Origin: Candidatus Tayloriibacteriota bacterium
GTDB taxonomy: Bacteria; Patescibacteriota; Minisyncoccia; Phycocordibacterales; SIBU01
Direction of reading: 5' to 3'
Length of the DNA: 64,000 bases
Assembly (NCBI GenBank): GCA_009695005.1
Contig: SIBU01000002.1
Coordinates: 7,274-71,273 of the forward strand
The notes under the pieces were generated by a model that was given only the letters and a program-made list of their open reading frames with translations, was not told where the DNA came from and searched no databases. This document shows positions 10,620 to 45,954 of the stretch, one piece after another (position 1 is the stretch's first letter; every line of letters begins with the position of its first letter). The translations under genes and the position numbers were made by a program.

Positions 10620-11348
10620 TCAAAGTGGACTGAGGATTGCCTTTACATATGGATTAACTATATTATCAACTAACATTAAAGCTTTTATTTCCGATAGAGA
10701 TAGCCAAATAAAATTATCATTTTCTTGCAGGGGAAGTTTAACTCCTGGCTTCAACAGATTTAATCTGCTCACGTTGCTTTTTTGCCAGAATCTTCCACCC
10801 TCCTCATTCTGACTGGCGGAATAAATAATTGTTGTATCGGGATGGTCAATATACTCGCTAAGAATAGGTTTGTGGCCCGAGTGATGTTGTCTCAGGTTAC
10901 TCATCGTTGCTTGGATAGAAGGTCCGAATTGAATTCTATTAATATTTCCACCCTCAAACTTGGCCTGCAATAAAAATTTAATCTCCCCTTTAATTTCTTG
11001 ACACAAGATAACCAAGTAGCCCCCTTCTTCCTGGACTATAATTGGCTGATCCCAACCAGAGACCTCGGAACTATTCGCATTTTGCACTCTTATTCCTTGA
11101 ACTGAAAAAAAATGACTGGTGCCTGCTTTGTGTCTGACCATCCCTTCTTTCTCTGAGTAAATCCAATCTTTCAATGAAGAAATTGGGAGTATCTGAATCG
11201 TCGATTGGTTTTTTGCTCTTTTTTTATGTAACCAATCCGTAGCGCGTTTAATATTCACTTTTGCTTTTTTCTTGTTAGAAAAAACTTTTGACCTTAGTTC
11301 ATTTAACCTTTTAGTATAAACTCGGGAGTTATTTTTAACCGTTTCCAT
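10620..11348 (-). CDS. NDP-hexose 2,3-dehydratase-like protein, single domain (half the size of EvaA/TylX3)
   Basis: Motifs HFFSVQGIRV, DQPIIVQEEGGYLVIL, LLQAKFEGGN, SQNEEGGRFW and FIWLSLSEI align (from memory) with the C-terminal Nudix-like repeat of 2,3-dehydratases. Only one repeat is present (242 aa). Confidence 0.5.
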   Translation of the reverse strand: METVKNNSRVYTKRLNELRSKVFSNKKKAKVNIKRATDWLHKKRAKNQSTIQILPISSLKDWIYSEKEGMVRHKAGTSHFFSVQGIRVQNANSSEVSGWDQPIIVQEEGGYLVILCQEIKGEIKFLLQAKFEGGNINRIQFGPSIQATMSNLRQHHSGHKPILSEYIDHPDTTIIYSASQNEEGGRFWQKSNVSRLNLLKPGVKLPLQENDNFIWLSLSEIKALMLVDNIVNPYVKAILSPL

Positions 11349-11358
11349 GGTGGAATAA

Positions 11359-11387
11359 ATTATATATAGACCTATTTATATTTGCAA
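11359..11387 (-). promoter_or_regulatory. Candidate sigma70-like promoter for the 2,3-dehydratase/3-ketoreductase unit (-35 TTGCAA, 17-nt spacer, -10 TATAAT, ~10-nt leader)
   Basis: Minus strand reads TTGCAA-N17-TATAAT-ttattccacc-ATG(11348). Hexamers are at 11382-11387 and 11359-11364. AT-rich background makes chance matches likely. Confidence 0.3.
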
Positions 11388-11623
11388 ACTTGTATAAAAG
11401 ACTACCCATTTTCCCACTTTCTGAATGGCCGTTGATATTATTTTTGTAAAACAGGAAGCGATTTCAAACGTCAGTTTTCACTGAAACAAGTTAAGTTTTC
11501 TTTCAGGCTCAAGAATGAAAATAGCAGGTGCACGAACAGGCCCGCCACCGATATGATTTTGAATTTTTTTAAACCGCTTTACTAAATTGAGTGTGTTGAT
11601 TCCAGAATTACGTTAATCATGTT

Positions 11624-12487
11624 TTACGCTTTTCTATCAAACACACTATTTGATTTCAGTATTTTTGAAATACTCTGGGGGTAATAGTTCAAAGTGGTGT
11701 ATGTTTGAATACAATCCATAGATAAATTTGCTAATCTGATATCTTTTGATAAATCTAATTCTTCGGGGATAATCAGACTTGTGTCAAAATTAAAATGTTC
11801 TGCTATTTTTAAAGCAAAATCATATCTAGATAGACTTTCTGATCCTGCACAGTGAAATATTCCTCGATGCTCCTTTTCGATAATAATTCGAAGCATATTA
11901 CATAAATCTCCAATATAAGTAGGATTGTTTATTAGATTTACATAGGCATGAAAATTTCCCTCCCGTTTTAATTTCGTGTATACCTCATCAACAAAATCGT
12001 TTTTTGTTCCAAAAATTCCGCCTATTCGTACTATGACAAAATCAATCAAATTATTTCTTATCAGGTTCTCAGTTGCCAGTTTATCTTTCCCGTATTGCGT
12101 AGTTGGCACTGCAACTGATAATTCATCATGTTTATGAACGCCGTCAAAAACAGCATCTGTTGAAATATAAATCAATTTTATTTTATTTTCAAAACACTGT
12201 GAAATGATATTTTCTGAAGCTTCAAAATTAATTCTTCTTGAAAAAATCTTATCTGCTTCACATTTAGCCATATCCTTGCTTCCAGCAAGATGGAGAATAA
12301 TGTCTGGGGAAACAGATTTAATATATTGATTTGTTTTTATAAAGTCAGTTAAATCAACGTTACGGACATTTTCATGAATATGGGTATTAGAAAATCCAAT
12401 AGGAATAATTTGGTTTTCCTCGTCAGGAAGCATTCGCAATAATTCGCTACCGATATAACCAGTTGCACCGGTCATCAGAATTTTCAT
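11624..12487 (-). CDS. RmlD-like dTDP-4-keto-6-deoxyhexose reductase
   Basis: MKILMTGATGYIGSEL Rossmann. ISTDAVFDG (RmlD STDYVFDG motif). 287 aa is RmlD size. ATG at 12487. Confidence 0.6.
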   Translation of the reverse strand: MKILMTGATGYIGSELLRMLPDEENQIIPIGFSNTHIHENVRNVDLTDFIKTNQYIKSVSPDIILHLAGSKDMAKCEADKIFSRRINFEASENIISQCFENKIKLIYISTDAVFDGVHKHDELSVAVPTTQYGKDKLATENLIRNNLIDFVIVRIGGIFGTKNDFVDEVYTKLKREGNFHAYVNLINNPTYIGDLCNMLRIIIEKEHRGIFHCAGSESLSRYDFALKIAEHFNFDTSLIIPEELDLSKDIRLANLSMDCIQTYTTLNYYPQSISKILKSNSVFDRKA

Positions 12488-12760
12488 TTTATCATTTAGG
12501 AAAATTTTGATAATAACACTGAGACAATTAACAACTTCTTTCGATATTCTTAATTTGTTGACCTGTAAATATTTTCCGTATCCAGTGAAAATCTGGGGTT
12601 AAACTCATCGGAATTGGGAGTAAAAAATATATCCATCATGTACGTTTCGCTTTTTTGAAAGCAGATGTCATGTTAAAGCCCGTAAATCAGTTGCCGTCTG
12701 GGACAAGAATTTTTTTCATAAGGTTGAATATAATTTAATTACTTACCGTTCGTCTTAAAA

Positions 12761-14122
12761 TTATTTCTTGATTTTCTTGGTTGTTACTGTTTTTTTATAT
12801 TCCTCCGCTCCCACAATTCGAGGAAAGGGAATGGGGATAATAAATTTACCTCCTTTGTCGCTAAAATCTTTGAGGTTGGCAATGATTTCCTTGGAAAAAT
12901 TCCAAGCTAGAAGTAGTGCATAATCCACCCCTTCGTTTATGAGTTCTACGTCGGAGACGACAGGAACGTGTCCACCGCCATGGCCACCCGGTGCGAAGCG
13001 GCCAATTTTCAAGCGCGCTCTTTCCGAAATAAGTTTGATGTGTCGGTTTGAAACTCCGATGTAATTTAAAAGAGTCATGCCTTTGGCAGGAGCCGAAACC
13101 ACCGCCAACTTTTTTCCTTGGTGTAGTAGTTTTTCAATAATCGTCATGAGTTCATCGCGATTTTTTCTAACACGTTTGGCAAAATTAAGCATGGTTTCCT
13201 TTTCGTGGAGTTTTGATTCTTTTTCAGCTTGAAGGAATTTTTGGACACTTGCATCAATCGAACGTGTACCGGTCCTTGCTATAAACACTCTGATGGAACC
13301 GCCATGAATATTGGTTTCTCTAATCATAAATATTTCCAAACCAAATTTGGCGAAGAAAGAAATGAGGGGTTTTATGGAAAGGTAAGACAGGTGTTCATGA
13401 TATACGGTATCGTATTCAAGATTTTCGACGAGGTGCTGAAAATACGGCGACTCAAAGATGAAAACCCCGTTCTTTTTAAGGATATATTTTACCGCGCGCA
13501 TTATTTCGTGCAGATCATCTATATGCGCGAACACGTTTGTGCCGACAATGACGGAAGCTGCGCCGACAAGTTTTTTGACTTTTTTGGCGCTTTCCATGCT
13601 GAAAAAATCGCAGATAGTCTTAATACCGTGTTCTTTGTTGGCTATTGCAACGATATTCGGAGCGGGATCAACCCCGATGGTTTTCATTCCCAGCTCTTTG
13701 AAAGATTTAAGAAGTGTGCCGACATTGCTTCCGATATCGACAATAACGTCATCTTTTTTTAATGAAAGGTCGGCGGTGATGGATTCCGCGAAACTGCCCC
13801 AGTGAGCCTGACCCGTTTTGGTCATCGATTGCTCGTAAGGATAGTCTAGTTGATATAGGACTTTCGGGTTGACTATATGACTTAACTGCGAGAGTCCGCA
13901 ATTTTCGCATAAAAGGACTCGTAGCGGATAAGAAATTTCCGGGATATCTAGTTCGTGCGCCGCTCTGAATTGGTCCGCGGGTGGAGTTAAACCCATGTCA
14001 AGATACAAGAAGAGTTTAGGGCTTTTGCACATTCGACAGACGGATGTTACACGATAGAGGTCTTTTACCGCTTCAGCCTGGATGTCTTTTTGCTTATGAT
14101 TTGTTTTTCGGTTGATAGTCAT
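12761..14122 (-). CDS. NDP-hexose C-methyltransferase, TylC3/NovU/EvaC family (Zn-ribbon + MTase + C-terminal domain)
   Basis: N-terminal CxxC...CxxC ribbon (CRMCKS...CENCGLSQL). Class I MTase motif (VIVDIGSNVGTL). Typical family length. ORF start at 14137 is TTG; the first ATG is at 14120-14122 (MTINRK..). Confidence 0.6.
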   Translation of the reverse strand: MTINRKTNHKQKDIQAEAVKDLYRVTSVCRMCKSPKLFLYLDMGLTPPADQFRAAHELDIPEISYPLRVLLCENCGLSQLSHIVNPKVLYQLDYPYEQSMTKTGQAHWGSFAESITADLSLKKDDVIVDIGSNVGTLLKSFKELGMKTIGVDPAPNIVAIANKEHGIKTICDFFSMESAKKVKKLVGAASVIVGTNVFAHIDDLHEIMRAVKYILKKNGVFIFESPYFQHLVENLEYDTVYHEHLSYLSIKPLISFFAKFGLEIFMIRETNIHGGSIRVFIARTGTRSIDASVQKFLQAEKESKLHEKETMLNFAKRVRKNRDELMTIIEKLLHQGKKLAVVSAPAKGMTLLNYIGVSNRHIKLISERARLKIGRFAPGGHGGGHVPVVSDVELINEGVDYALLLAWNFSKEIIANLKDFSDKGGKFIIPIPFPRIVGAEEYKKTVTTKKIKK

Positions 14123-14401
14123 ATAATAAGATGCCAAATTCTTGCATATTTTTTTCTGATTTGCAACATCTGTAATGTATCACGACCTTCGCAATACATG
14201 AAGTAAAATTATGTATGTTCCAGACACGATAAATTTCCAAATCTTGCTTTACTTTAGACTAGGGATGCAATAAAGACCTTTCCTAAAAGATTCCGACTCC
14301 AAAAATAAATATGAGTAAGGTGAAGGAAGTGGAAGAAAATAGCAGAAAAAATTTCGTGTAAAGAATCAGCTAGGAAAAGCCTGTTTAAAAAATTGTGAAA
14401 A

Positions 14402-15667
14402 TTATCTGGCGGATTTTTTATCAAAACGATCTATGCATGCGTTCAGCTTGTTGCTTAGATTGCTAAAGGACCATCTTTCCAAAACTTTTTTACCGTTTAG
14501 TACGAGTTGTTTCTGAAGATTTTCGTCTTTAGAAAAGGAATGAATTTTTTCGGCAATATCCTCCGGGTTACTTGGATCGAACAGGAGAGCTGCATCAAAA
14601 ACTTCATCCAATATTCCGGGAACATTTGATTGAAGAACTGGCTTGTCCATGAACCACGCTTCGATTGTTGGGGTTTGAATCCTACCCATAAAGCTTGGAA
14701 TAATCATTGCGGAACAAAGGGCAAATAACGCACTCATTTCATCATTGTCGGCATAGCCAATCAGGTGGATTTGGTTTTCAATTTTTAAATCCTTGATTTT
14801 CTGGAGTACCTTCTCGTATTCTCCCCACAGTTCTTGTTTGCTTCCGGGTAGAACAAGGTGGAAAATTTCCCCTTTGTCTCGAAGAATTTTAACAGCCTCT
14901 ATCAAATTTCGATGGTTTTTATGGGGCCAAAATTGGGCTGGATAAAATAAAAAACCTGGGGGGAGACTGTGTTTTAGGGCAACTTCCTTCTTTTTCTCTT
15001 CCGAAACGTTTTTTGTCAGATAGATAGGTGGAGCGCACCGTATGACTTCCACAGTATTTTCATCTCTGCCATAAATTTCACAGAACTCTCTCTTGTTTTG
15101 GTCGATTTCAACTATTACAATGGTTGCCTTTTTGGCCACATTTTTATATAGGTATTCCCTTTTTTCCCACTGTCCTAAAGACCAAACTTCTGGAAATTGC
15201 CTGTTGAATCTGTGCTGAAGTTCGTGGACCACTACCAGCGAAGGAATGTTTGACAGATAAGACATTTCCGAAGGCCCGTGATAGACCATAAGGTCTATCC
15301 CGTGACCTTCAAAGTTAAGTGCTCTTTTTTTAGAGTTCAGCCTCGCCAAGAAAATTTCAACCCTGTACAGTCGGAGTGCGCGGAGAAGATTTATTATCAA
15401 CAAATTTATTTTTCTGCGGAATGTTGGTGCAACAGATTTTTCTTCGTTGACACTTTTGCCTTCCTCGGAATTTTTTATCCTTTTAAATCCAATAGGAACT
15501 ATTTTCCAGTTCGAATCCTTGAAATCTTCAAAAGGAAAATCAGGGGAAAGGGTGAATATGATGTAGTCATGTTTTTTATTTTCCTTAAATGCGGCAAGCA
15601 TATTGACGGCGTATTGGTATACGCCACCGGATTTCATATTGCATTCGAAATAGAAGCCTATTTTCAT
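14402..15667 (-). CDS. GT4 (GT-B) glycosyltransferase
   Basis: C-terminal Glycos_transf_1-like region (HLVLPGS...IHLIGYADNDEMSALFALCSAMIIPSF...EAWFMDKPVLQSNVPGILDEV). ATG at 15691 or 15667 (MKIGFYF..); the latter is chosen by analogy with GT4 N-termini. Confidence 0.5.
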   Translation of the reverse strand: MKIGFYFECNMKSGGVYQYAVNMLAAFKENKKHDYIIFTLSPDFPFEDFKDSNWKIVPIGFKRIKNSEEGKSVNEEKSVAPTFRRKINLLIINLLRALRLYRVEIFLARLNSKKRALNFEGHGIDLMVYHGPSEMSYLSNIPSLVVVHELQHRFNRQFPEVWSLGQWEKREYLYKNVAKKATIVIVEIDQNKREFCEIYGRDENTVEVIRCAPPIYLTKNVSEEKKKEVALKHSLPPGFLFYPAQFWPHKNHRNLIEAVKILRDKGEIFHLVLPGSKQELWGEYEKVLQKIKDLKIENQIHLIGYADNDEMSALFALCSAMIIPSFMGRIQTPTIEAWFMDKPVLQSNVPGILDEVFDAALLFDPSNPEDIAEKIHSFSKDENLQKQLVLNGKKVLERWSFSNLSNKLNACIDRFDKKSAR

Positions 15668-15862
15668 ATTATGTTTCGATAATGGTAGCATGTATATATA
15701 GGGTTTTCCACATATACTGTAACAATCGAAAATTGCTGTAGTTACAAGACGATATGATGTGTGAAGCGGATTTCTCAGCGATTTAGCCCTACTTACTAAA
15801 TTAAATAGTTAATTATTTCATCAAGTAGGATATGAAAGAGTGCTGTGCTAGTATTGTTGACT

Positions 15863-16654
15863 ATGAATGCACAAATTGTATCGACCTTGGGTCCATCTAG
15901 CGGAAGCGAGAAAGTTTTGGTAGCAATGATTAAGGGAGGTATAAATATAGCTCGATTAAATTTTTCATGGGGTACTCATGAGGAGCATGGCTTACGTGTA
16001 GATAACCTTCGTAAGGCTGCCAAAAAACTTAAAAAGAGGATCCTAATCCTTCTGGATTTGTCTGGGCCAAGAGTGGCTGCTAAAGGTGGACATCATTTTG
16101 ACGGTGTAAGTAAAAAAATATTGACTAAAAAGGATATAAACGATCTTAATTTTGCTAAGAAATATGGTGTTGATTACGTTGCCCTTTCTTATGTCGGATG
16201 TGCGGCAGATGTGGTAGATCTTAAAGAGGAGTTGAAGAAAAAAGGCGTTACCGCAAAAGTAGTTGATAAAATTGAAAGAAAGAAGGCTTTCGATAATTTG
16301 GATGAAATTTTGAAAGAAGCTGACGCCATTATGATTGCCCGCGGAGATTTGGGGAATGAAATTCCTTTGGAAAAAATTCCTTACGTTCAAAGTATTATTA
16401 TTGCCAGAGCCAAGGAGGCGGGGAAGCCGGTGATTACTGCAACAGAAATGATGATATCAATGGTTGAAAAATCAAGACCTTCACGTGCGGATGTTTCGGA
16501 TGTTACAGTTGCAATTTTAACCGGAACAGATGCTGTTATGCTTTCCGAGGAGACAGCTATCGGTAAGTATCCTGTTGAAGTTGTGCAGATGATGAAAAGA
16601 ATAGCCGTAGAAGCTTCTCGTCAGCCGTTCGCTAAACCTCTCAATTCTTTTTAG
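15863..16654 (+). CDS. Pyruvate kinase-like protein, A-domain (TIM barrel) only; lacks B (lid) and C (allosteric) domains
   Basis: PK signatures: IVSTLGPSS, INIARLNFSWGTHEEH, LLDLSGP, MIARGDLGNEIPLEKIPYVQSIII, PVITATEMMISMV, PSRADVSDVTVAILTGTDAVMLSEETAIGKYPVEVV. Only ~17 aa lie between DLSGP and the second barrel half. The protein ends at ~264 aa. ORF start at 15845 is GTG; ATG at 15863 gives the canonical MNAQIVSTLGP. Confidence 0.6.
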   Translation: MNAQIVSTLGPSSGSEKVLVAMIKGGINIARLNFSWGTHEEHGLRVDNLRKAAKKLKKRILILLDLSGPRVAAKGGHHFDGVSKKILTKKDINDLNFAKKYGVDYVALSYVGCAADVVDLKEELKKKGVTAKVVDKIERKKAFDNLDEILKEADAIMIARGDLGNEIPLEKIPYVQSIIIARAKEAGKPVITATEMMISMVEKSRPSRADVSDVTVAILTGTDAVMLSEETAIGKYPVEVVQMMKRIAVEASRQPFAKPLNSF

Positions 16655-16799
16655 TTTTAGTATCATTTTAGACCTGAAGTTAGAAGTTTTAGGGTGTGTT
16701 TGTTGTATTAAATTTATTTGACATATTATCATGTTCATGATAGTGCGAAATTCGGTTACTTAGTCAGAACATATAAAAATTCAATCAGGAAAGGTCAAT

Positions 16800-17351
16800 A
16801 TGACCGAATGGACATTTGATGAAATTGAAGAAGGTAAAAGAACCCTAGCACGAATCAAGGAAAGAGGATTTCCCGTTCCACTCGATATTATTTTTGGCTT
16901 AACTGAGTCATTTTTCACTATCGTCGTTGAGTGCGCCGTGGTTAAGCGGTTTGACCACGGACCTACTGGGGTCGAGTGGCAGACACTCTGGATTCGCCGA
17001 CCCTCGGATGATCGTTATTACCCCAATAGGTGGCATATGCCTGGGAAAATGCAATTACCAGGGATCAGCATTCCGAAAATGATTGAGAGGACATTAGCTC
17101 GTGAAGTAGGCGTTGCTGTCGACGGAAGTCTGGTTCCCAAAATTGGTTTTTTTGAGGATATTGGCGGTCGTCGAGGGCACGAACATCAGCACCAGTACTT
17201 TGTCACTGTGCCGCAAGACTCCGAAGTAAAAACGGAAAAGGGCGAGTCTCATGTTTGGTGCAATGTGTTTGGGGCTCCGCCTCAGCCAACCCTTCAACCC
17301 CATCTGAAACTTCTTGAAAACCTTCGAGATTTCCTGAGAAAGAAGATTTAA
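16800..17351 (+). CDS. Hypothetical protein with degenerate Nudix-like segment; GC-rich relative to flanks
   Basis: ATG at 16800 preceded by SD AGGAAAGG (16785-16792). Followed by a hairpin terminator. The segment RWHMPGKMQLPGISIPKMIERTLAREVGV resembles a Nudix box, but the catalytic Glu residues are not conserved. Local GC is visibly higher than neighbours. Confidence 0.5.
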   Translation: MTEWTFDEIEEGKRTLARIKERGFPVPLDIIFGLTESFFTIVVECAVVKRFDHGPTGVEWQTLWIRRPSDDRYYPNRWHMPGKMQLPGISIPKMIERTLAREVGVAVDGSLVPKIGFFEDIGGRRGHEHQHQYFVTVPQDSEVKTEKGESHVWCNVFGAPPQPTLQPHLKLLENLRDFLRKKI

Positions 17352-17370
17352 GATTCGGGCGATACCTAAT

Positions 17371-17405
17371 ACCCAACTACACTTGTGTGGTCGGGTATTT
17401 TTTTA
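17371..17405 (+). terminator. Rho-independent terminator (12-bp imperfect stem, 2-nt loop, T9)
   Basis: acccaactacac-tt-gtgtggtcgggt followed by atttttttt. Lies immediately after the 16800..17351 stop and abuts the convergent gene's stop (17407). Confidence 0.5.
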
Positions 17406-17406
17406 G

Positions 17407-18639
17407 CTAATATTTTTTAAGAAAATCAGTAAATATTTTTTTCATATAATCAAGCATTTCCGGAGTTAATCCTTGATGAGCACCTACTGCGAAGGTATCC
17501 TTCATTATTTTGTCGGCATTTTTGAGTTCCCCAACAACTCTTCGTGGTAAGTTTTTGTAAGCTGGATGTCTTAAGATGTTTCCCGCAAAGAAGAGTCTTG
17601 TTTGGATGTTTTGGCTTTCCAGGTATTTTACTATTGTAAAGCGGTCAAAGGGCGCCCCGTCTCTAATGGTAAGAGGGAATGCCAGCCAGCTTGATTTAGC
17701 ATTACTGTGTTCCTCCGGTAAAATAAAATATTTCTCATATTCCTTAAAAAACCTTTTTAAGGAATCAAAGTTATGTTTACGAATTTTAATTACATTCGGC
17801 AATCTTTTTAGTTGTTCTAGTCCGAAGGCGAACATCATTTCGACAGGCTTTAGATTAAAACCCATATGAGTATAAGTAAATTTCCTGTCATAATGAATAC
17901 CTGTAATTTTTGTGGTAAAACGCTTTTCTAGGCTTTCATCATCGTTAAGAGCTGCTCTACCCCATTCACGATAAGAATAAGCCGATTCGTATAATTTTTT
18001 GTCTGAAACCGCAACGATACCTCCGCCTCCTCCTGCCGTGATGTGATGTGAGGCGTAGAAACTTGACGTGGTTACATCACTGTAGGTTCCTGCCGGCTTT
18101 CCGTTGAATGTTCCAGCCATAGTGTCGCAACTATCATCTATGAGATAAAGTTTGTGCTTGTTGCAAAAAGCACGAAGTTTTACCATGTCATTTAAATTAC
18201 CAAAAGCGTGCGGAATTAATATCGCTTTAGTTTTTGGAGAAATCATTTTAGGAAGATTGTTGAGATCTAGGTTGTAAGTGCCAAGTTCAGAATCACCAAC
18301 TACAGGTACTAAATTATTGATATATATCGTGCTGTAAGTGGTAGAGAAAGTGCACGCAGGAGTGATTACCTCACTACCTGGAGGGAGATTTAATATTTTG
18401 AGGGCGAGTAGGTTTGCCGATGATCCTGAATTGACTACTATGCCGTATTTTTTTCCAAAAAGCTTGGAGGTTTTTTTTTCGAATTCCTCCACAATTGGTC
18501 CCATTCCAAGCCAGCCACGTTTGAGACAGGCTACTACTGCCTCTATTTCCTCTTCACCGTACACTGTTTGAGCATAGTAAACTTTATCTTTTCCTGGGGT
18601 AAACTTTCCTGACTTATTGTGTATTCCGTAATATTTCAT
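17407..18639 (-). CDS. PLP-dependent NDP-4-keto-6-deoxyhexose 3-dehydratase, E1/SpnQ-like (His in place of Lys)
   Basis: DegT fold (VVNSGSSANLLAL ... SFYASHHITAGGGGG ... YREWGR). The HH motif is at the Lys position. The E1-type FRDWGR-like motif is present. ATG at 18637-18639. Confidence 0.55.
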   Translation of the reverse strand: MKYYGIHNKSGKFTPGKDKVYYAQTVYGEEEIEAVVACLKRGWLGMGPIVEEFEKKTSKLFGKKYGIVVNSGSSANLLALKILNLPPGSEVITPACTFSTTYSTIYINNLVPVVGDSELGTYNLDLNNLPKMISPKTKAILIPHAFGNLNDMVKLRAFCNKHKLYLIDDSCDTMAGTFNGKPAGTYSDVTTSSFYASHHITAGGGGGIVAVSDKKLYESAYSYREWGRAALNDDESLEKRFTTKITGIHYDRKFTYTHMGFNLKPVEMMFAFGLEQLKRLPNVIKIRKHNFDSLKRFFKEYEKYFILPEEHSNAKSSWLAFPLTIRDGAPFDRFTIVKYLESQNIQTRLFFAGNILRHPAYKNLPRRVVGELKNADKIMKDTFAVGAHQGLTPEMLDYMKKIFTDFLKKY

Positions 18640-19564
18640 AGCGTTTGTAGTGGTTGATAATTTTTTTCAGGCCCTCAGTATAATCTATTTGCGCGTGCCA
18701 ACCAAGTTTATTTATTTTTGAGGTATTGGCTACAAAGTTGGTGATTCCCACTGCATTATGAAAGGCAGGTGGCGGTATCGGAGTTATTTTTGATTTATTG
18801 CCGGTATGTTCCAGTATGTAATTAATCATATCCTTAAATTGCACTGGTTTCCCATAGCCAATTAGATAAGTTTCGTTGACCGCTTTATTTTCTAAGAAGT
18901 GGAGAGCATCAATTACATCATCAATATAGATGTAATCTCGCTTAAAATTTCCACCATGATAGACGTTTAAATTTTCACCTCGGATAGCTCTCATTACTGC
19001 AAAATTGAGCCATGCTTTTTTCGGATCATCAAAAGTTTCACTAGCGCCGTACACGTTTGTAAATCGGGCAATGAGGTAGGGAATTTGATATAGGCGAGAG
19101 TAGAGTTTTAGAATTTCTTCGGTTGCTAATTTGGTAATTCCATATAATCCCAAAGGATCAATTTTACTCTCCTCGGTTATCGGTTTTTTTGTATTATCGT
19201 ATTCGTTGCCGTAAACTTGAATTGTTGCCGGATAAATTATTTTCGGTTTTTTTGTTAAATCTTTGCATAATTCTAAAATTCTCAACGTTCCCTTTATATT
19301 TGTATCAACGTCGACAGAAGTGTCGGTCAGGACGTGATAATTGTGTGTTGTGCTCGCACAGTGGTAAATGCAGTCAACTCCTTCGATGTCATTTTTTGTT
19401 ATGGCCGATATATCCTTTATTAAAATTTTGACATTTTTGTTTTTAATACGATTTTTATCTTTTGAAGATCTTGAAATTACGGTGATGGAACCCTTAAGTG
19501 AGTTTGCTATGGCTGATCCAATAAAACCTAAACCGCCAGTTACTAGGTATTTCTTTTTTTTCAT
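18614..19564 (-). CDS. NAD-dependent epimerase/dehydratase (extended SDR)
   Basis: YLVTGGLGFIGSAI Rossmann. YGITK (YxxxK). 26-bp overlap with the downstream E1-like gene. Confidence 0.6.
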   Translation of the reverse strand: MKKKKYLVTGGLGFIGSAIANSLKGSITVISRSSKDKNRIKNKNVKILIKDISAITKNDIEGVDCIYHCASTTHNYHVLTDTSVDVDTNIKGTLRILELCKDLTKKPKIIYPATIQVYGNEYDNTKKPITEESKIDPLGLYGITKLATEEILKLYSRLYQIPYLIARFTNVYGASETFDDPKKAWLNFAVMRAIRGENLNVYHGGNFKRDYIYIDDVIDALHFLENKAVNETYLIGYGKPVQFKDMINYILEHTGNKSKITPIPPPAFHNAVGITNFVANTSKINKLGWHAQIDYTEGLKKIINHYKRYEILRNTQ

Positions 19565-19566
19565 GA

Positions 19567-20556
19567 CTATTTATTTTTATAAAAAGACAGTGTAATCAAT
19601 AAACCTTCGTCAAAAGAAACTGCTGGTTTCCAGCCGAGCTCTACTTTTATTTTTGTACAGTCCAGTGAGTAACGAAAATCATGACCTGGGCGATCTGGTA
19701 CGTACATAATATAGGAGTTGTCGAGTTTGTGGAAAGCAAGTAATTTTTTTGTAAGTTCGAGATTGCTTAGTTCTGTGTTACCTGCAATGTTATAAACTTC
19801 ACCACTTTTCCCACTCTGAAATACCAAATCAATTGCTCTAATATTGTCCTCAACGAACAACCAGTCACGTATCTGGGCGCCCTCTCCATACAACGGAACT
19901 TTTTTGCCTCTTGAAAGATTGGTGGTAAAAAGAGGTATAAGTTTGCTTTTGTCTTGATGTGGACCGTAATTGTTGGAAGATCTGGTAATAATAATATCTA
20001 GACCAAAAGTATGGTGGTATGAATGTACAAGACGATCTGCTGCTGCTTTTGACGCACTGTAAGGATTGCGTGGCATAAGAGGGGAGTCTTCGGTAAAGAC
20101 CCCTTTTTTTGTTGCAAGTGCCCCGTATACTTCGTCGGTTGAGATAAAAAGAAATCTTTTTGTTTTGAATTCTCTCGCTAAAATAAGTAAATTGTGAGTT
20201 CCCATGACGTTTGTTTCTATAAACAGACTAGGGTTTTTTATACTTAAATCTACATGACTTTCCGCTGCGAAATGAATTATGTCAGTTGGCTGATATTTTT
20301 TAAAAATTTTACGTAAATTTGAAATGTTTCGTATGTCCGCTTTTTCAAAAATGTAATTTATTTCCTTATCAATTTTAATGTTATCGATGTTTGCCGCGTA
20401 GGTTAGGCTATCAATATTGATAAACAGTGTGTCGGGATAAGCGACTACAAATTTATTCAAATAGTGACTTCCGATGAAGCCGGCACCGCCAGTTACTACA
20501 ATTCTTTTTTTGTAGGAAGGGGGTGATTTTTTTGAATTACTTCTTTTTGTTGTCAT
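19567..20556 (-). CDS. rmlB: dTDP-glucose 4,6-dehydratase
   Basis: IVVTGGAGFIGSHY, HFAAESHVDLSI, TNVMGTHNLL, STDEVYG and YSASKAAAD are all RmlB hallmarks. ORF-track start is TTG (20601); the first ATG at 20556 gives MTTKRS... Confidence 0.7.
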   Translation of the reverse strand: MTTKRSNSKKSPPSYKKRIVVTGGAGFIGSHYLNKFVVAYPDTLFINIDSLTYAANIDNIKIDKEINYIFEKADIRNISNLRKIFKKYQPTDIIHFAAESHVDLSIKNPSLFIETNVMGTHNLLILAREFKTKRFLFISTDEVYGALATKKGVFTEDSPLMPRNPYSASKAAADRLVHSYHHTFGLDIIITRSSNNYGPHQDKSKLIPLFTTNLSRGKKVPLYGEGAQIRDWLFVEDNIRAIDLVFQSGKSGEVYNIAGNTELSNLELTKKLLAFHKLDNSYIMYVPDRPGHDFRYSLDCTKIKVELGWKPAVSFDEGLLITLSFYKNK

Positions 20557-21283
20557 TATTTTTATTGCGAATAAAATTTGCAGTTTCAAGCAAACTGTCA
20601 AACGTGCCTATATCGAACCATTCTTTTTTTAAAAAGATACCATGAAGTTTGCCATCCTTGATATATTGCTTGTTTATGTCGGTAATTTCGTACTCACCTC
20701 TCTCTGATGCTTTGAGACTTAAACATTTCTTAAAAACTGTACTGTCATACATATAAACACCGGTCACAGCGTAATTGGTCTTTGGTTTGGTTGGTTTTTC
20801 ATCAATATCTAGAATCTTGCTGTTTTGTCCAAGTGTAGCAATGCCGAATCTTTCAGGGTCCGCTACTTCTTTTAGAAACACCGTCGCTCCACTTTTGAAT
20901 TTTTTTATGTGTGGTGTTAGGTCGTCTTCAAAAATATTGTCGCCAAGATACAGCACACAGTTATCATTACCGATGTAATCTTTGGCGATCCATAAGCCGT
21001 AAGCAATGCCATTGGGCTGGTTTTGGATACCGTAGACAATTTGTATTTGCTTGCCGGTGCGTTTTGACATGAAATCAGCCCCTGAACCGAGAAGTTTAAC
21101 CATAGATTCGATTGCTTCAGGTGAAGTGACAATCATGATTCGGTCGATTCCAGCGTCTACAAGTTTTTTGACCGCGTAATAGATTACAGGCTTATCATAT
21201 AGAGCAAGTAGATGTTTGTTGGTAGAAACGGTTAAAGGACGAAGTCTGGTTCCACCACCTCCGGCGAGTATAATCCCTTTCAT
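20537..21283 (-). CDS. rmlA: Glucose-1-phosphate thymidylyltransferase-like sugar nucleotidyltransferase
   Basis: MKGIILAGGGGTRLRPLTVSTNKHLLALYDKPVIYY matches the RmlA N-terminus (MKGIILAGGSGTRLYP...IYDKPMIYY). ORF-track start is TTG (21337); the canonical ATG (MKGII) at 21283 is used. Confidence 0.6.
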   Translation of the reverse strand: MKGIILAGGGGTRLRPLTVSTNKHLLALYDKPVIYYAVKKLVDAGIDRIMIVTSPEAIESMVKLLGSGADFMSKRTGKQIQIVYGIQNQPNGIAYGLWIAKDYIGNDNCVLYLGDNIFEDDLTPHIKKFKSGATVFLKEVADPERFGIATLGQNSKILDIDEKPTKPKTNYAVTGVYMYDSTVFKKCLSLKASERGEYEITDINKQYIKDGKLHGIFLKKEWFDIGTFDSLLETANFIRNKNNDNKKK

Positions 21284-21468
21284 TTGCTTGTTATTTGACA
21301 TGAGGGTAATCATAACGACATTTGAAAACTGTGTCAAAGAAAAGGTCCTTGATTTGGGCGGTAATTATTCTCTTGTTTTAGCGGTTTAATTAAGGGCTGA
21401 AACCCTTGGTCCATTTCACCTAAACCACTCTATTTACACTCCTAAGCGGTACCGCTATAATTCGAATT

Positions 21469-22635
21469 ATGCAATTACGACAAAAAATAAAGAATATTCC
21501 AATACTCGGCGATCTGATCATGATTTTTGTTCGACTCCCGAGTTTTGTAAAGGGGTCTTTTCTTACTTGGAAATACTATTCTAAACGTCATGCTTCTGCG
21601 GATTTTTTTGGTACTTACATTATTACAGATGTTGCCCCGATTGCGACTCAATATGAGAAAATTGTTAGCCAACTTGGTGGCGACATACTAAAAAATAATC
21701 CAGAAGGTGATCATGTTGAAATAACACCGGTGAGTTTCAAAAACAGGGGACTTTTTTCAATTATGAATGAGGTGTTGGATGAAATTTCCATGAATAATGA
21801 GAAGTCATTCCAGATACTTTTACAAAATACGATGTATAACAATTCTCCGGATGAGAATATGTGGAACTATTATTTTGAACCAATAGATAATAGTGCTGAT
21901 AAACGATTCCCATATAATCTTTTCTTCAACACGAGACCATTTTTCAATAGTCTCTTTCCGCACCGACCAAAGCTTGTCTCACTGTTTAATAAAGTTTTTA
22001 AAAGTCGGATCAAAATAAAATCCGAGATACTCGAGAAAGCAGAGCTGTTTGTTCGTACCAATTTTGCAAATAAAAAAATTGTTGGCGTGTACTATCGAGG
22101 TACTAATATTATGATATCGATTGATTCGGTTTCCCAAATGTACAGAAAGGCACTCCATGAGGAATATTTTATAGAGATAGATTCATTATTGGCGAACGGA
22201 TATGACGCTGTTTTTCTTTCAACCGACGATGAGAAAATTTTTCCAAAATTTAAAGAACGCTACGGTTCAAGGTTGCTATATTACGCTGAAAATAAAAACG
22301 GTTTGAACACAATAATATTTGTGGACTATACACAAAAACCCCCAAAAATTCCGAAATGCTTTACCCCAAGAGAGTTTGGAGAGGGTGCTTTAATCAATAG
22401 CATCCTTTTAGCTAAATGTGATTTTTTCGTTTCCGGCCTTTCAAATGTTTCTGCGGTTATTAAATATTTTAATCCTAAGATTCCATTTAAAAATCTTGAT
22501 ATTAAATATACTAATAAATACATGCAAGATATTGTTAGTATCGGAATGTTTCGAGGACTGGGCAATTTCGGGGAGGGAATTCGAACTTTAAAGTTTTTGA
22601 GAGAAGAAAGTAAAAAGATAAAAAATGAAAGATAA
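21469..22635 (+). CDS. Hypothetical protein, possibly fucosyltransferase-superfamily GT-B (GT11/GT23/GT65-like motifs)
   Basis: VGVYYRGTN resembles the GT11 HIRRGD block. FFVSGLSNVSAV resembles the GT11 NSTMSWW block. No confident family match. ATG at 21469. Confidence 0.3.
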   Translation: MQLRQKIKNIPILGDLIMIFVRLPSFVKGSFLTWKYYSKRHASADFFGTYIITDVAPIATQYEKIVSQLGGDILKNNPEGDHVEITPVSFKNRGLFSIMNEVLDEISMNNEKSFQILLQNTMYNNSPDENMWNYYFEPIDNSADKRFPYNLFFNTRPFFNSLFPHRPKLVSLFNKVFKSRIKIKSEILEKAELFVRTNFANKKIVGVYYRGTNIMISIDSVSQMYRKALHEEYFIEIDSLLANGYDAVFLSTDDEKIFPKFKERYGSRLLYYAENKNGLNTIIFVDYTQKPPKIPKCFTPREFGEGALINSILLAKCDFFVSGLSNVSAVIKYFNPKIPFKNLDIKYTNKYMQDIVSIGMFRGLGNFGEGIRTLKFLREESKKIKNER

Positions 22636-34452: not shown

Positions 34453-35273
34453 TTTCTTTTAAAAATAAAGCCTCTATCGTTCGCAACAGTATCGTTTAGT
34501 TGGATGGTTCCAGCTAGGGCGTCCCATTCCGCAATATATTCATATTTGTCGGCTAGGAATTTAATAAATTTTTCCTTGTTGAAAAACCAAGCCGGATAGC
34601 TTGAGTCGTATATTTTTGGAGCTACTTTTTGGATAGTTATTCTATCTGGGCCATTTGGAATAAACGAAATTCTATCAAAAATAATATATTTAAAATTTAA
34701 AGCGATAGTCTTCTCTAAAATTTCGTATGGTTTTTCAATGTACTGAAGTACGCTAGAGAAGAGAGCTGTATTTGGTGAGGTTTCTTTGAAACATCCCTCT
34801 GTAGATTCAAAGAATTTGAGAGTGTTATCCTCAAATTCTTTCTTACCGGTTCTTACGAAATTCTGTTGTTCTACTATACTCCATTGGATTTTCGATAGAT
34901 GGGCAAGCATTTTTTTATTTTGAAAATAAGAACTTCCCAATGATCCGCCGAAATCCATTAGGTTCAGTTGGTTTCCCTCTTGCGAGCTAATCCAAAGAAG
35001 GCTGGCCAGCAATGGCCACGAATATTCGGGAGTTGCAAAAGTTACAGAGTCACGTTCGAAGGCCACTTCTCCTAGTTTGGCCTTTGTGGCACCAATTCTC
35101 ACCTTTTCTAGAACCGTGCTTGTGTCATAGCCAGTGGAATTTTTCTGAGCCTCTTTCCATGTAGGAAAATTCCCAAAAAAACCGAAAGATGATTGACCAT
35201 TAAGTTTTTTAATAGTCCGAGTAATTGCTGGCGGTAGCCAATTCTTTGCTATCTTTCGTATTTTATTTTTCAT
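34449..35273 (-). CDS. Putative class I SAM methyltransferase
   Basis: LMDFGGSLGSSYF (DxGGxxG motif I-like) and an N-terminal WLPP segment. Confidence 0.35.
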   Translation of the reverse strand: MKNKIRKIAKNWLPPAITRTIKKLNGQSSFGFFGNFPTWKEAQKNSTGYDTSTVLEKVRIGATKAKLGEVAFERDSVTFATPEYSWPLLASLLWISSQEGNQLNLMDFGGSLGSSYFQNKKMLAHLSKIQWSIVEQQNFVRTGKKEFEDNTLKFFESTEGCFKETSPNTALFSSVLQYIEKPYEILEKTIALNFKYIIFDRISFIPNGPDRITIQKVAPKIYDSSYPAWFFNKEKFIKFLADKYEYIAEWDALAGTIQLNDTVANDRGFIFKRK

Positions 35274-36102
35274 TATTTTTTGTGATACCTAAGATGTCAT
35301 CTAAGTTTTTTCTAGGAAAGAGATCTAGAAGTCCTCCATCCGTGGCGTTCGTTATGGAAATGTGCTCTTTTTTTGCAAAACTTCTGATTGAACGGTATTT
35401 GTCCCATAAACTGGCGTAGGATGCGCATTCCGTTCCAAAATCGCTTTCAGACCACTCGTTGTATCCTTTTTGACTCAAGACACTTTCTTTCTCTTCGAAA
35501 AAATGTCTGCTTTCTCCAACGTGCAGAATCCAATCATGGTCAACACCTAAAAGATTAATTTCTTTAACTCCAAGATATATCGCTAAATAGATGGCGACAT
35601 GAGGGACGGTTTGTATTTCCGGAAGATCCTTTGTGAAATCAATTTTCTTGTCAATTGGTTTGATCCCAAGGTAATAATAATAAACATTTTGTTTCTTAAA
35701 GACTTGATATCTCTCGACAATATGTTTGTCAGACAATGAGATCATAACATTCTGATTTTCAGGAAAGTGTTTCTCTGCGTCTTTAAACATTTCCCCAAAT
35801 TGGTCCTCTGTAATTGGTGGATGAGAGGGGGTGAAAACATGGAAGAATGGTTTGATGATTTTAAAGTCAGGATGAACAAAGAAATTACTGACGCTTATTG
35901 AAATCTCACCAGAAAGTTTTGAAAGATCTTGTCTTTTGATCGACGGACCTGTTGCCAGCACAAAACAGCGCCTGTTCGAAAAAACATTTTTAAGTCCAAT
36001 ATTTTTTTGAAGGAGTTTTCCGTCTCTCATTCTTAAATATATACTGTATATGTTAACCAATTTCCTACCTAAAATTGGTATTTTTTTAATTCTTTCCTTC
36101 AT
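35263..36102 (-). CDS. DUF115/MptE-like protein (motility-accessory-factor-like; putative nonulosonic-acid transferase)
   Basis: CFVLATGPSIKRQDLSKL (the G.GPSL motif of DUF115). Directly downstream of the NeuB-like gene. ORF ATG at 36198 overlaps the NeuB gene by 95 bp; the internal ATG at 36102 (MKERIKK) leaves a 1-bp gap. Either is possible. Confidence 0.4.
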   Translation of the reverse strand: MKERIKKIPILGRKLVNIYSIYLRMRDGKLLQKNIGLKNVFSNRRCFVLATGPSIKRQDLSKLSGEISISVSNFFVHPDFKIIKPFFHVFTPSHPPITEDQFGEMFKDAEKHFPENQNVMISLSDKHIVERYQVFKKQNVYYYYLGIKPIDKKIDFTKDLPEIQTVPHVAIYLAIYLGVKEINLLGVDHDWILHVGESRHFFEEKESVLSQKGYNEWSESDFGTECASYASLWDKYRSIRSFAKKEHISITNATDGGLLDLFPRKNLDDILGITKNNEK

Positions 36103-36103
36103 T

Positions 36104-38011
36104 TTAAAAATTGTGTTTTTGTAAACGTTTAAGTGCAGTGATGAATCCTTCGCCGTGATCACGATGACCCATCCAGATTTCCGGTGAAATGGTGACATCG
36201 ACTTTTAAAATTTCGGGCATGAGGATGTTCCATGGAACATCACCTTCACCCACCTGAAGACCTTCTCCGTCGGTACCGGCTCCATCTGATAGATGAATAT
36301 GTTTTATCAAAGGCTTCAATGTTTCAAAATATTTAATTGGATCTTTTTTCGCAAGTGTACAGTAAAGCTGGGCATGGCTACTGTCGTAACAGAGATTAAA
36401 ATTATGTTTCTTAGCGAACTCATATATTTCATCAGCATCGGTGAAAGTGTTTGAAAACCATGAACCTCCTTTGTACCACGGTAGAGGGGCTTGATTTTCC
36501 AGCAATAATTCAATGTCCGTTCGATCTATTTTTTCTAGGGCTTTGCCGAGACGAGTATACATTTTCGCACGTTCGTCTTTGGAAACAAAATCATCATAAC
36601 TCATGCCACCTGGATGAAGAACCACCTTGGCCTTTGTGGGGGTTTTTCCAAAATATTTTCTTATGGATCGAACAGTGTTTAGTAGGTCGTTGATGTTCTT
36701 GATGGAAGCATTCACAACAGAAGAGTCTGTGGAAGAAAAATCTAGAAGTTGGTCACCCCAAAGTTCAGGCGCGTGCACGATGAGTTCAAGTTCTGGATGG
36801 TTTTTGAAAGCCATCTGATTTTTTAGGTCGTGAGAACTGAAATGAAATTCAACAAATGAAGGTTTGAGTCCCGCAATCATTTCCTCGAAATCATGAGGTC
36901 GGACAATGAGCCCCCATTTTCTGCTAGATGAGAAATTGCGATTCAGCCTTTTTTTACCGAGGTCTTCTTCTGTAAAATAGTCATCCATTGGTATGTCGCG
37001 TTCGGCCTTTAAGCCAATCAATTTGTAAAGTTTCTGAGGAGAAAGGCCTTTGGCGGGACTTTTAGAAATAATCATTTCGCGTGTCAAAATTTCTCCTTTT
37101 TTTATTGGAACTTTAGCCACCAAACTTTTTCCTAGAATTTTTCTGTTGATAAGTTCTCCTGCTGTGATAAATTTTTTGTCACTTCTAAGCGCTTCTTCTA
37201 TTGCTCGTATATCTCTGACAAGTTTTTTTATACCAGTTGGTTCAAGTGAAATAGCATGGTCAGGTCCAGTCATGGTTCTGTCCAAAGTGATATGTCTTTC
37301 GATAACTTTGGCACCGAGCGGAATGGCCGCAGAACTTATGGCTATGCCATGTTCGTGGCCAGAGTAGCCAACCGGAACATTGAATTTTTCTTGAAGTGTT
37401 TTTATGAATCGTAAGTTTACGTCCTTCGGGGCAGTAGGGTAGGTGCTGTTGCAGTGAAGAAGAATGTATTCTGCATTAAGCTTGTTTAGAAAATCCACAG
37501 TGTCGCCGATTTCTTCCAAAGAGGACATTCCGGTGGAAACTATCATGGGCTTTTTCTTTGAAGCTATGTATTCAAGAAGTTCAAAATTTACCATGTCAGC
37601 AGAGGCGACTTTGTAGGCGGGCACATTTAGTTTTTCCAATGCGTTAACACTTGGAATATCCCAAGGTGTACACAAAAACATGATACCTTGATCTTTTGCG
37701 TACTTTGCAAGTTCTTTGAAATTTTCATGTGACAGTTCCGATTCTCGGATGAGAGACAAGATGTATTGAGTTGCGATATCTTCATTTTTTGTATTGTTCC
37801 ATGCCTTGTCGGTATAGAGGGTTTTGAAATCTCGCATTTGAAATTTCACGGCGTCGGCCTTGGCCTCAACAGCAACGTCGACAAGTTTTTTTGCCAGTTC
37901 TATTCTGCCGTTGTGGTTGATTCCGGCTTCGGCAATTATGAAAGTTGGCTGGTCTTCTCCGACCAATCTTTCGCCAATTTTAACTGTCTTTTTGTTGTTT
38001 GGTTTTTTCAT
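36104..38011 (-). CDS. Nonulosonic/sialic-acid synthase (NeuB/PseI/LegI family) + SAF domain fused to C-terminal xylose-isomerase-like TIM barrel
   Basis: N-terminus IIAEAGINHNGRIELAKKLVDVAVEAKADAVKFQ (NeuB). SAF region (KVPIKKGEILTREMI). The C-terminal ~270 aa carry HAPE...VLHPGG...LENQ...HLSDG, reminiscent of AP-endonuclease-2/xylose-isomerase-like barrels. Total 635 aa. Confidence 0.6.
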   Translation of the reverse strand: MKKPNNKKTVKIGERLVGEDQPTFIIAEAGINHNGRIELAKKLVDVAVEAKADAVKFQMRDFKTLYTDKAWNNTKNEDIATQYILSLIRESELSHENFKELAKYAKDQGIMFLCTPWDIPSVNALEKLNVPAYKVASADMVNFELLEYIASKKKPMIVSTGMSSLEEIGDTVDFLNKLNAEYILLHCNSTYPTAPKDVNLRFIKTLQEKFNVPVGYSGHEHGIAISSAAIPLGAKVIERHITLDRTMTGPDHAISLEPTGIKKLVRDIRAIEEALRSDKKFITAGELINRKILGKSLVAKVPIKKGEILTREMIISKSPAKGLSPQKLYKLIGLKAERDIPMDDYFTEEDLGKKRLNRNFSSSRKWGLIVRPHDFEEMIAGLKPSFVEFHFSSHDLKNQMAFKNHPELELIVHAPELWGDQLLDFSSTDSSVVNASIKNINDLLNTVRSIRKYFGKTPTKAKVVLHPGGMSYDDFVSKDERAKMYTRLGKALEKIDRTDIELLLENQAPLPWYKGGSWFSNTFTDADEIYEFAKKHNFNLCYDSSHAQLYCTLAKKDPIKYFETLKPLIKHIHLSDGAGTDGEGLQVGEGDVPWNILMPEILKVDVTISPEIWMGHRDHGEGFITALKRLQKHNF

Positions 38012-45073: not shown

Positions 45074-45954
45074 TAGATTAACTTATGTAGGCGGTTCCGG
45101 ATTGATGAAGCTGTAAGTCCTATTTGCTCGTCATGTTCATCCGATTTGCCGTAATTGGTTAGAAATTTTCTCGGTACACCCACGGTATCGATTGATGCCG
45201 CTTGTGGTTTTAATGAATTGATTATTTCATTTGTTAAACCACCTTCGTAGTATGGTTCACATAGTAGAACTTTTCCTGATGGGCAATTGTTTCTAAGAGT
45301 TTCATGATCAAACGGTTCAAGTGTTGTGTAATAAAGAATAGTTACATCCTCGTTTAAGCAAGCCTCCAAAACAGATTTTAGTATTGGCCCTACTGCGACT
45401 ACTGTGGCTGATTTACCTTTTCTAATTAAGTGCGCTTTTCCAAATTTTACCGGCAGACTTTCGGTATTTTCCTTTTCGGATAATCTGAAATATGTAGGGT
45501 GGCCATTGGCGTACGATTCCTTAAAAAGAATATCAAATTCACCCGCTGTTCCTGGTACAACGATTTCCATACCAGGAATTTGTTTCAAAATACCGATGTC
45601 TCCAGGACAATGATGTGTACAACCAAGTGCCGCGTAATCGTATGAAGCCCCGATGCTGACAAAGTTTCCACCTAACTTTTGATAGCCGAAATCATCTTTA
45701 AGTTGTTCGAGTGAACGCTCGATTAAAAAAGGTGCGATGGTGTGGATTACGGGAATTTTACCGGTTAATGCTAAACCTGCGGCCAGACTGACTGTGGATT
45801 GCTCAAGGATGCCTACGTTGTAAATTCTTTTTGGAAAATTTTCAAAAGCTTTTCTGAAGCCAAAAATTCCAATGTCACAGAGAAGGGTAACCAAGCGCTC
45901 GTCTTTTTCGAGGAGCGATTCGACTGTGACGATTAGTTGTTGGCGCATATTCAT
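45073..45954 (-). CDS. Transketolase, C-terminal (pyrimidine-binding) subunit
   Basis: Matches the Transket_pyr/C-terminal subunit (..GILEQSTVSLAAGLALTGKIPVIHTIAPFL..). ORF ATG at 46011; the internal ATG at 45954 gives an ATGA overlap with the N-terminal subunit gene. Start is uncertain. Confidence 0.65.
   Translation of the reverse strand: MNMRQQLIVTVESLLEKDERLVTLLCDIGIFGFRKAFENFPKRIYNVGILEQSTVSLAAGLALTGKIPVIHTIAPFLIERSLEQLKDDFGYQKLGGNFVSIGASYDYAALGCTHHCPGDIGILKQIPGMEIVVPGTAGEFDILFKESYANGHPTYFRLSEKENTESLPVKFGKAHLIRKGKSATVVAVGPILKSVLEACLNEDVTILYYTTLEPFDHETLRNNCPSGKVLLCEPYYEGGLTNEIINSLKPQAASIDTVGVPRKFLTNYGKSDEHDEQIGLTASSIRNRLHKLI

Follow-up and report, generated by a model that had tools for sequence, protein, structure and literature searches.

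A conserved barrel-only pyruvate kinase homolog of Patescibacteria, probably a minimal glycolytic enzyme

In the textbook account of pyruvate kinase (PK) catalysis, a lid, the B domain, closes on the active site and contributes Arg119, Asp177 and Lys206 to the nucleotide. Nearly all PKs that have been studied are allosteric tetramers built via the C domain. The canonical bacterial enzyme (EC 2.7.1.40; PF00224 plus PF02887) is represented by the proteins of G. stearothermophilus (2E28), S. aureus (3T05) and E. coli (PykF, 1PKY). Here we describe a gene that encodes the A-domain barrel of such an enzyme and nothing else. It lies in a 64,000-nucleotide stretch of contig SIBU01000002.1 (positions 7,274 to 71,273 of the forward strand; assembly GCA_009695005.1, Candidatus Tayloriibacteriota bacterium), referred to below as the window. 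The product, called mini-PK for its architecture, is 35-45% identical to the canonical enzymes over the A-domain barrel and has in common with them all of the residues that bind phosphoenolpyruvate (PEP) and Mg2+ or relay protons. Unlike them, it has neither the B lid nor the allosteric, tetramer-forming C domain, R119, D177 and K206 are missing, and His77 is replaced by Trp.

Closer to this architecture is an artificial E. coli PykF engineered without its lid (PK TIM+Reg; reported by Sugrue et al. in 2020), which keeps the C domain and the tetramer. It reportedly shows measurable but poor catalysis, which would make the lid important without being indispensable. Mini-PK likewise lacks the B domain, but it is natural, widely conserved and also without the C domain. 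The short A+B PKs (NCBIfam NF005234/PRK06739, ~350 amino acids) are natural enzymes that have lost the C domain, and they make up 12 clusters among the nearest relatives of mini-PK; the lid is kept there, however, and the window protein scores 185 bits against the 564-bit cutoff of that model. K+-independent PKs carry a signature of Leu113, Gln114, Lys117 and, at position 120, an aliphatic side chain (rabbit numbering; PMC8835810). Two of them, the M. tuberculosis enzyme (5WRP) and the rabbit E117K mutant (7R6Y), are among the top structural matches of the window protein and agree with it in having Leu at 113 and a basic side chain at 117. In the mini-PK family, L66 (113) and R70 (117) are invariant, whereas 81% of the full-length relatives have Lys at 117; Gln114 gives way to Ser, Pro or Ala, and the rest of the A-B hinge, including position 120, is deleted or rebuilt. 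The basic residue at 117, Arg70 here, would provide the charge that K+ brings to other PKs. No description of a natural A-domain-only PK turned up in full-text literature searches, and many members of the family are already labelled 'pyruvate kinase' in databases.

The list of open reading frames (ORFs) for the window contains an entry at 15845..16654 (+) that opens at a GTG. Translation from the ATG at 15863 gives 263 amino acids, and in a 41-member family alignment the homologs start at the position matching this ATG (MxSKAQIV...). A reading made from the sequence alone, which preceded this work, had placed the end of the protein at ~264 amino acids, and the stop codon does follow residue 263. 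The product is identical to NCBI EXS46_00490, a 'hypothetical protein' from a metagenome-assembled genome (MAG) of a Candidatus Taylorbacteria bacterium; Taylorbacteria fall within the Parcubacteria/Patescibacteria group. Residues were mapped by aligning human PKM2, the sequence of which was verified against the PDB, to the 41-member alignment. The gene and the features of its product are as follows.

15863..16654, + strand: mini-PK gene, 263 amino acids plus stop, A-domain barrel only (ORF list, PF00224, TIGR01064, AlphaFold2 and Foldseek)
15953..15970, + strand: motif R31-L-N33-F-S35-W36, equivalent to PKM2 R73, N75, S77 and H78; Arg of the PEP phosphate and residues of the monovalent-cation site
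16055..16072, + strand: motif D65-L66-S-G-P-R70, equivalent to rabbit D112, L113 and the basic residue at 117; signature of the K+-independent type with Arg for Lys
16070..16111, + strand: short beta-hairpin, residues 70-83, in place of the ~90-residue B (lid) domain; strands 70-73 and 76-79, near-invariant G76, invariant H77
16268..16276, + strand: K136-I-E138, equivalent to PKM2 K270 and E272; phosphoryl-transfer Lys and Mg2+ ligand, invariant in the family
16346..16348, + strand: D162, equivalent to PKM2 D296; Mg2+ ligand, invariant in the family
16442..16444, + strand: T194, equivalent to PKM2 T328; proton-donor side of the enolpyruvate, invariant in the family
16544..16552, + strand: S228-E-E230, equivalent to PKM2 S362 and E364; invariant in the family

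Pfam assigned the window protein to the PK barrel family PF00224, matched in two stretches (E = 1.9e-77; 261 bits against a cutoff of 30). The TIGR01064 pyruvate kinase model was passed marginally (312 bits; cutoff, 306.4), and the score fell below the cutoff of every subfamily model. Pfam returned no match to the C domain (PF02887), to HpcH/HpaI aldolase (PF03328) or to PEP mutase/isocitrate lyase; besides PK, DUF2325 alone appeared at E ≤ 0.1 (E = 0.012, below its cutoff). PF03328 is precomputed on only a few homologs, beside PF00224. When the protein was aligned to S. aureus PK (3t05), residues 3-73 matched chain residues 25-95 and residues ~84-258 matched chain residues ~186-363. Because this alignment skips the B domain, ~90 lid residues are reduced to ~10. 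The sequence-only reading had counted ~17 residues at this place, a fair estimate given that the number runs from 9 to 17 with the choice of boundaries. The C-terminus lies ~5 residues past the last barrel helix (helix 8).

The AlphaFold2 model computed on the 41-member alignment has eight beta/alpha units, with a predicted local distance difference test score (pLDDT) of 91.7 and a predicted TM-score (pTM) of 0.89. It superposes on solved PK A domains, a comparison that the earlier reading had proposed as a check: the top 50 Foldseek matches in the PDB were all PKs, with E values of ~1e-28, TM(query) of 0.86-0.93 and root-mean-square deviations of 1.2-2.6 Å over ~255 columns. The window protein is a complete PK A-domain (beta/alpha)8 barrel without B and C domains.

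Nine catalytic positions of PKM2, R73, N75, D113, K270, E272, D296, T328, S362 and E364, correspond to R31, N33, D65, K136, E138, D162, T194, S228 and E230 of the window protein, and all nine are invariant among the 41 members. The PEP, metal and proton-relay roles fall on these residues. The cation-site residue S77 of PKM2 is S35 here and is kept in 93% of the family; within the D65-R70 motif, D65, L66, G68, P69 and R70 are invariant, and S67 is found in 88% of members. Conservation of the catalytic Lys, Glu and Thr, another check put forward earlier, is therefore complete (K136, E138 and T194). The broader statement that essentially every A-domain signature is conserved holds for the PEP, metal and proton-relay residues and fails at the nucleotide site, where His78 and Arg120 of PKM2 are replaced by Trp and by Ala or Gln, respectively.

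Only four features set the clade apart: W36, the use of Arg in place of Lys at position 70, H77 of the hairpin and G112, which is Arg in full-length PKs (PKM2 R246). Trp at position 36 takes the place of rabbit His77 (PKM2 H78) and occurs in 94% of mini-PKs and in 0% of 114 full-length relatives. The substitutions W36, H77 and G112 may be compensatory. We also considered Arg70 and Arg139 as compensations, peculiar to the short proteins, for the lost lid and rejected this, as Lys or Arg is common at both positions in the nearest full-length K+-independent PKs; the two residues are thus an inheritance from that branch.

The architecture is shared by a large family. After clustering at 90% identity, the best 120 homologs were all 242-305 amino acids long and 50-64% identical to the window protein, and those with names came from MAGs of Paceibacterota, Kaiserbacteria, Yanofskybacteria and similar groups. 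Altogether, the sequence clusters with the short form number well over 100. Of the 150 top representatives in a library built at 50% identity, 17 lacked the B domain, the others being ordinary PKs of 450-600 amino acids and the 12 A+B clusters mentioned above. A neighbour-joining tree of the barrel columns, computed without bootstrap, placed 23 of 24 B-less sequences in one clade. The remaining one, P0240 (257 amino acids, PK-like), fell outside and does not contain the DLSGPR motif; it may represent an independent loss of the lid or a fragment.

Among the matches listed for GTDB species representatives, the short form occurred in Paceibacteria, Paceibacterota, Yanofskybacteria, the 'Patescibacteria group', CPR3 and Saccharibacteria (the last being an automated label), and Moraniibacteriota had the full-length form. 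As far as sampled, the clade of ~260-residue proteins (258-284 amino acids) is confined to Patescibacteria, or the candidate phyla radiation (CPR), namely to Parcubacteria-type lineages and CPR3. Judged by its sequence motifs, the clade is derived from the K+-independent branch of PKs, the nearest full-length members of which read DLQKR, DLCKR, DLSKR or DLQRR at the DLSGPR site.

We then compared the gene neighborhoods of 24 distinct mini-PK loci besides the window, taken from sequence-matched contigs, GTDB genomes (at least 8 loci) and Joint Genome Institute (JGI) metagenomes. In 20 of them, enolase (ENO), a 2-hydroxyacid dehydrogenase (HDH), glycerate 2-kinase (GLYK; DUF4147/MOFRL) and/or a His_Phos_1 protein resembling phosphoglycerate mutase (PGM-like) directly adjoins mini-PK on the same strand. 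The dehydrogenases are of the D-lactate dehydrogenase (D-LDH) or glycerate-dehydrogenase type, and the usual gene orders are HDH-GLYK-ENO-PK, ENO-PK-HDH and HDH-PGM-PK-ENO. Three loci, those of the closest relatives of the window protein, have genes for the E1alpha/E1beta subunits of a 2-oxoacid dehydrogenase and/or family 4 glycosyltransferases (GT4) as neighbors, and a single locus from CPR3 (L025) has no neighbor of the glycolytic, E1 or GT4 kind.

Gene fusions repeat the same associations. Several cluster representatives join mini-PK to a PGM-like domain (in either order), to glycerate kinase (glycerate kinase+PK), to enolase (PK+enolase) or to both of the latter (glycerate kinase+enolase+PK). 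Two fusions were followed at the DNA level and are uninterrupted ORFs under translation table 11: a glycerate kinase-enolase-miniPK protein of 1092 amino acids (L089:2279-5557) and a miniPK-enolase protein of 679 amino acids (L090:3001-5040). In the latter contig, a PGM gene and the PK-enolase fusion directly follow the rpoA/L17/L13/S9 operon.

From these observations, we consider it likely that the window protein is a functional, minimal PK, probably K+-independent and unregulated. The step that leads from enolase to an enzyme reducing or decarboxylating pyruvate is the conversion of PEP to pyruvate, for which an intact PK barrel is the obvious catalyst. Given the glycolytic neighbors in 20 of the 24 loci and the fusions, a minimal, unregulated glycolytic PK is the best reading, and mini-PK is most likely the ordinary glycolytic enzyme of the cell rather than an enzyme of its sugar coat. 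The first of two alternatives offered in the sequence-only reading, a bona fide minimal PK, is accordingly the one we favor, on the strength of predicted fold, residue conservation, conserved architecture and the glycolytic clusters and fusions. We infer K+ independence, the lack of regulation and the use of ADP to accept the phosphoryl group; for ADP, the grounds are the invariance of the phosphoryl-transfer Lys, the need of these fermentative organisms for ATP and the activity that the lid-less E. coli PK reportedly retains.

A plausible mechanism can be outlined. PEP would be bound as in ordinary PKs by R31, K136, T194, S228 and the Mg2+ held by E138 and D162. The phosphoryl group would pass to a nucleoside diphosphate in an open, lid-less site, where Trp36, in place of the adenine-pocket His, might provide extra stacking, and protonation of the enolpyruvate would then yield pyruvate. 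Activity would be constitutive, free of control by fructose 1,6-bisphosphate, AMP or sugar phosphates. Mini-PK would complete a compact pathway that starts at hydroxypyruvate/glycerate or 3-phosphoglycerate, runs through 2-phosphoglycerate and PEP and ends in pyruvate, which can go on to lactate. In the genome that contains the window, the gene would have left the glycolytic cluster and be transcribed as a separate unit within a glycan locus of ~55 kb.

Some of the results weigh against a functional, glycolytic PK. In rabbit PK, the lid residues R119, D177 and K206 swing in onto the nucleotide, and His77 bounds the adenine pocket (PMC8835810). The equivalents of D177 and K206 disappeared with the lid, and at the position of R119 (PKM2 R120) the window protein has Ala72, where 85% of the family have Gln. 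With these nucleotide contacts absent, efficient phosphoryl transfer to ADP is not guaranteed. Confidence in the model is low for the hairpin at the site of the lid (pLDDT, ~56). Finally, the 64-kb window contains no enolase, 2-hydroxyacid dehydrogenase/LDH or glycerate kinase, and the mini-PK gene stands beside no glycolytic gene.

A bolder version of the minimal-PK reading is that mini-PK is the sole PK of Patescibacteria and transfers the phosphoryl group efficiently without a lid. It could do so through a rebuilt nucleotide site (Trp36, Arg70, His77 and Arg139), through a lid or channel supplied by a partner (enolase, the PGM-like protein or glycerate kinase, with which it is fused in some cases) or by using an acceptor other than ADP. 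The window holds a single PK match and no second PK. We regard this version as doubtful.

The alternative that survives best places the protein in lower glycolysis with altered chemistry: a PEP phosphatase that forms no ATP, an enzyme with another phosphoryl acceptor, or one that serves mainly through a PK side activity such as oxaloacetate decarboxylation. We think this unlikely. The loss of all lid-borne nucleotide contacts, the Ala or Gln at the Arg119 position and the exchange of His77 for Trp all fit such a change, and the gene context requires only that PEP become pyruvate, not that ATP be formed. However, the phosphoryl-transfer Lys (K136) and the Arg of the PEP phosphate (R31) are invariant. 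Fermentative CPR cells have few other ATP-yielding steps and could ill afford to waste the phosphoryl bond of PEP, and in loci where glycerate kinase comes before mini-PK, one ATP is spent that a PK would regain. In PK, moreover, the nucleotide is bound for the most part by way of its phosphates and the metals, and the adenine pocket, a loose one, belongs to the A domain.

The second alternative in the sequence-only reading was a PEP-handling enzyme repurposed for glycan chemistry. In this lineage, such a protein might provide pyruvate for a thiamine diphosphate (ThDP) enzyme or for pyruvylation, or tune the PEP pool of NeuB. Its appeal comes from the surroundings of the gene, which is, as that reading stated, embedded in a glycan locus: from ~0.8 to 55 kb, the window is filled with genes for NDP-sugar dehydratases, epimerases, aminotransferases, a C-methyltransferase, many glycosyltransferases, Wzm/Wzt, a NeuB fusion and a CMP-sugar cytidylyltransferase-like protein, together with transketolase-like genes. 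The NeuB-like synthase cited earlier is indeed present (36104-38011), but it is 19.5 kb away from the mini-PK gene and on the other (-) strand, and the genes that flank mini-PK, for a family 1 glycosyltransferase (GT1; 14402-15691) and a DegT aminotransferase (17407-18639), are likewise both on the opposite (-) strand.

Also in favor of a glycan role, the three closest relatives (P0002, P0003 and P0004; 56-64% identity) share the block E1alpha-E1beta-PK-GT4-GT4 (L087:2-2996, L091:308-2733 and L092:160-3474) with gaps of 5-100 bp, on contigs that end before a possible E2/E3 or additional glycan genes. This shared block indicates that the PK gene left the enolase cluster in the sub-lineage of the window. 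Since E1 consumes pyruvate, it is also a fitting neighbor for an enzyme that produces it. The GT4 genes of these relatives have no ortholog near the mini-PK gene of the window, and glycosyltransferases are so abundant in these genomes that chance adjacency is plausible. In the other loci, searched with the window proteins, no NeuB-type or other glycan gene of the window was found beside PK. The protein shows no lineage-specific change at catalytic positions and no similarity to NeuB (PF03102) or to pyruvyl- or enolpyruvyl-transferases, PK being the only family that Pfam returns. With glycolytic rather than glycan genes adjoining mini-PK in 20 of the 24 other loci, repurposing for glycans is unsupported for the family as a whole, and for this lineage it is very improbable, although the GT4 block and the setting of the gene speak for it.

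The integrity of the gene was examined as well. An independent Logan assembly (L001; 10,429 bp) corresponds to 11143-21571 of the window with 0 mismatches. When 21 sequences each of the B and the C domain were used as tblastn queries, no remnants of either domain appeared in any frame of the window or of 12 related loci (best E, 0.046); as a positive control, the same queries matched two full-length pyk loci of Moraniibacteriota with E values down to 1e-14. A sequencing error, with the C domain continuing in adjacent frames, had been named as the observation that would overturn a minimal PK; given the identical second assembly and the missing remnants, we rejected a frameshift or pseudogene. 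Supply of a lid or C domain in trans by a nearby ORF was rejected too, as there is none in the window or the 12 related loci. Relaxed selection on the window copy was likewise rejected: among 90 columns of high conservation it deviates in 6, each time by a conservative change, and the family range is 0 to 8. A pseudogene, gene fragment or assembly artefact of a normal three-domain pyk, which the halved length and the 'hypothetical protein' label of the older NCBI record might suggest, is thus extremely unlikely in view of the second assembly, the controlled search for remnants, the same architecture with invariant catalytic residues in well over 100 clusters and a barrel that is complete in a confident model.

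The immediate surroundings of the gene comprise two further features.

15692..15862, strand not assigned: intergenic region of 171 bp between the mini-PK gene and the divergently transcribed GT1 gene (14402-15691, -), from the ORF layout
16800..17351, + strand: ORF183, 183 amino acids, downstream of mini-PK and co-oriented with it, Nudix-like below threshold (NUDIX E = 0.0011; 19.5 bits, cutoff 21.1), with a degenerate Nudix box

The intergenic region presumably holds the promoter of the mini-PK gene; a consensus scan for promoters and terminators near the gene found nothing above the expectation from shuffled sequence. ORF183 was considered as a conserved partner of PK and rejected, as it is missing from all other mini-PK loci; it is probably unconnected with PK in function. 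A signature of insertion around the mini-PK gene and ORF183 was also sought and rejected, the only repeats being short, AT-rich chance repeats, with no tRNA.

Other genes in the window deserve mention in their own right. The NeuB fusion (36104-38011, -) encodes 634 amino acids with NeuB (E = 1e-88) and SAF domains and a C-terminal AP_endonuc_2/xylose-isomerase-like TIM barrel, an unusual add-on for a nonulosonic-acid synthase; its ORF overlaps the upstream ORF at 35263-36198 by 95 nt. At 45073-46754 (-), adjoining Wzt/Wzm, lies a split transketolase-like pair of 266 (Transketolase_N) and 311 (Transket_pyr plus Transketolase_C) amino acids, which could be a ThDP enzyme for branching sugars rather than the transketolase of the pentose-phosphate pathway. 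A 774-residue protein with a Wzy_C/O-antigen-ligase domain and C-terminal TPR repeats is encoded at the edge of the glycan locus (52082-54406, +), and the ORF at 61637-62239 (+), adjoining a methyltransferase and a Nudix gene, codes for a SET-domain protein (PF00856, E = 6e-15). Outside the window, a 325-kb contig of the Paceibacteria type carries, 4 kb from its mini-PK gene, genes for a Zot-like protein and a rolling-circle Rep (REP_ORF2-G2P) with small ORFs between them (L005:10471-12721). This region could be an inovirus-like single-stranded DNA element integrated in a CPR genome.

These findings bear on the enzymology of PK and on the metabolic reconstruction of CPR bacteria. PK has been reported as patchy in CPR, being found in about one-third of genomes, in a study that does not mention the short form (Jaffe et al. 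2020; PMC7304191). The marginal TIGR01064 score and the 'hypothetical' labels could contribute to this patchiness. If mini-PK were indeed a sole PK working efficiently without a lid, the minimal catalytic unit of an enzyme that is among the most thoroughly studied would be redefined and the scoring of PK in reconstructions of CPR metabolism would change. For the organism of the window, the analysis removes a tempting but unsupported link between PK and the glycan locus. For the family, a conserved barrel-only PK in the glycolytic operons of CPR bacteria would mean, if true, that neither the B nor the C domain is required in vivo, and mechanistic studies as well as enzyme engineering would have a minimal scaffold ready to hand.

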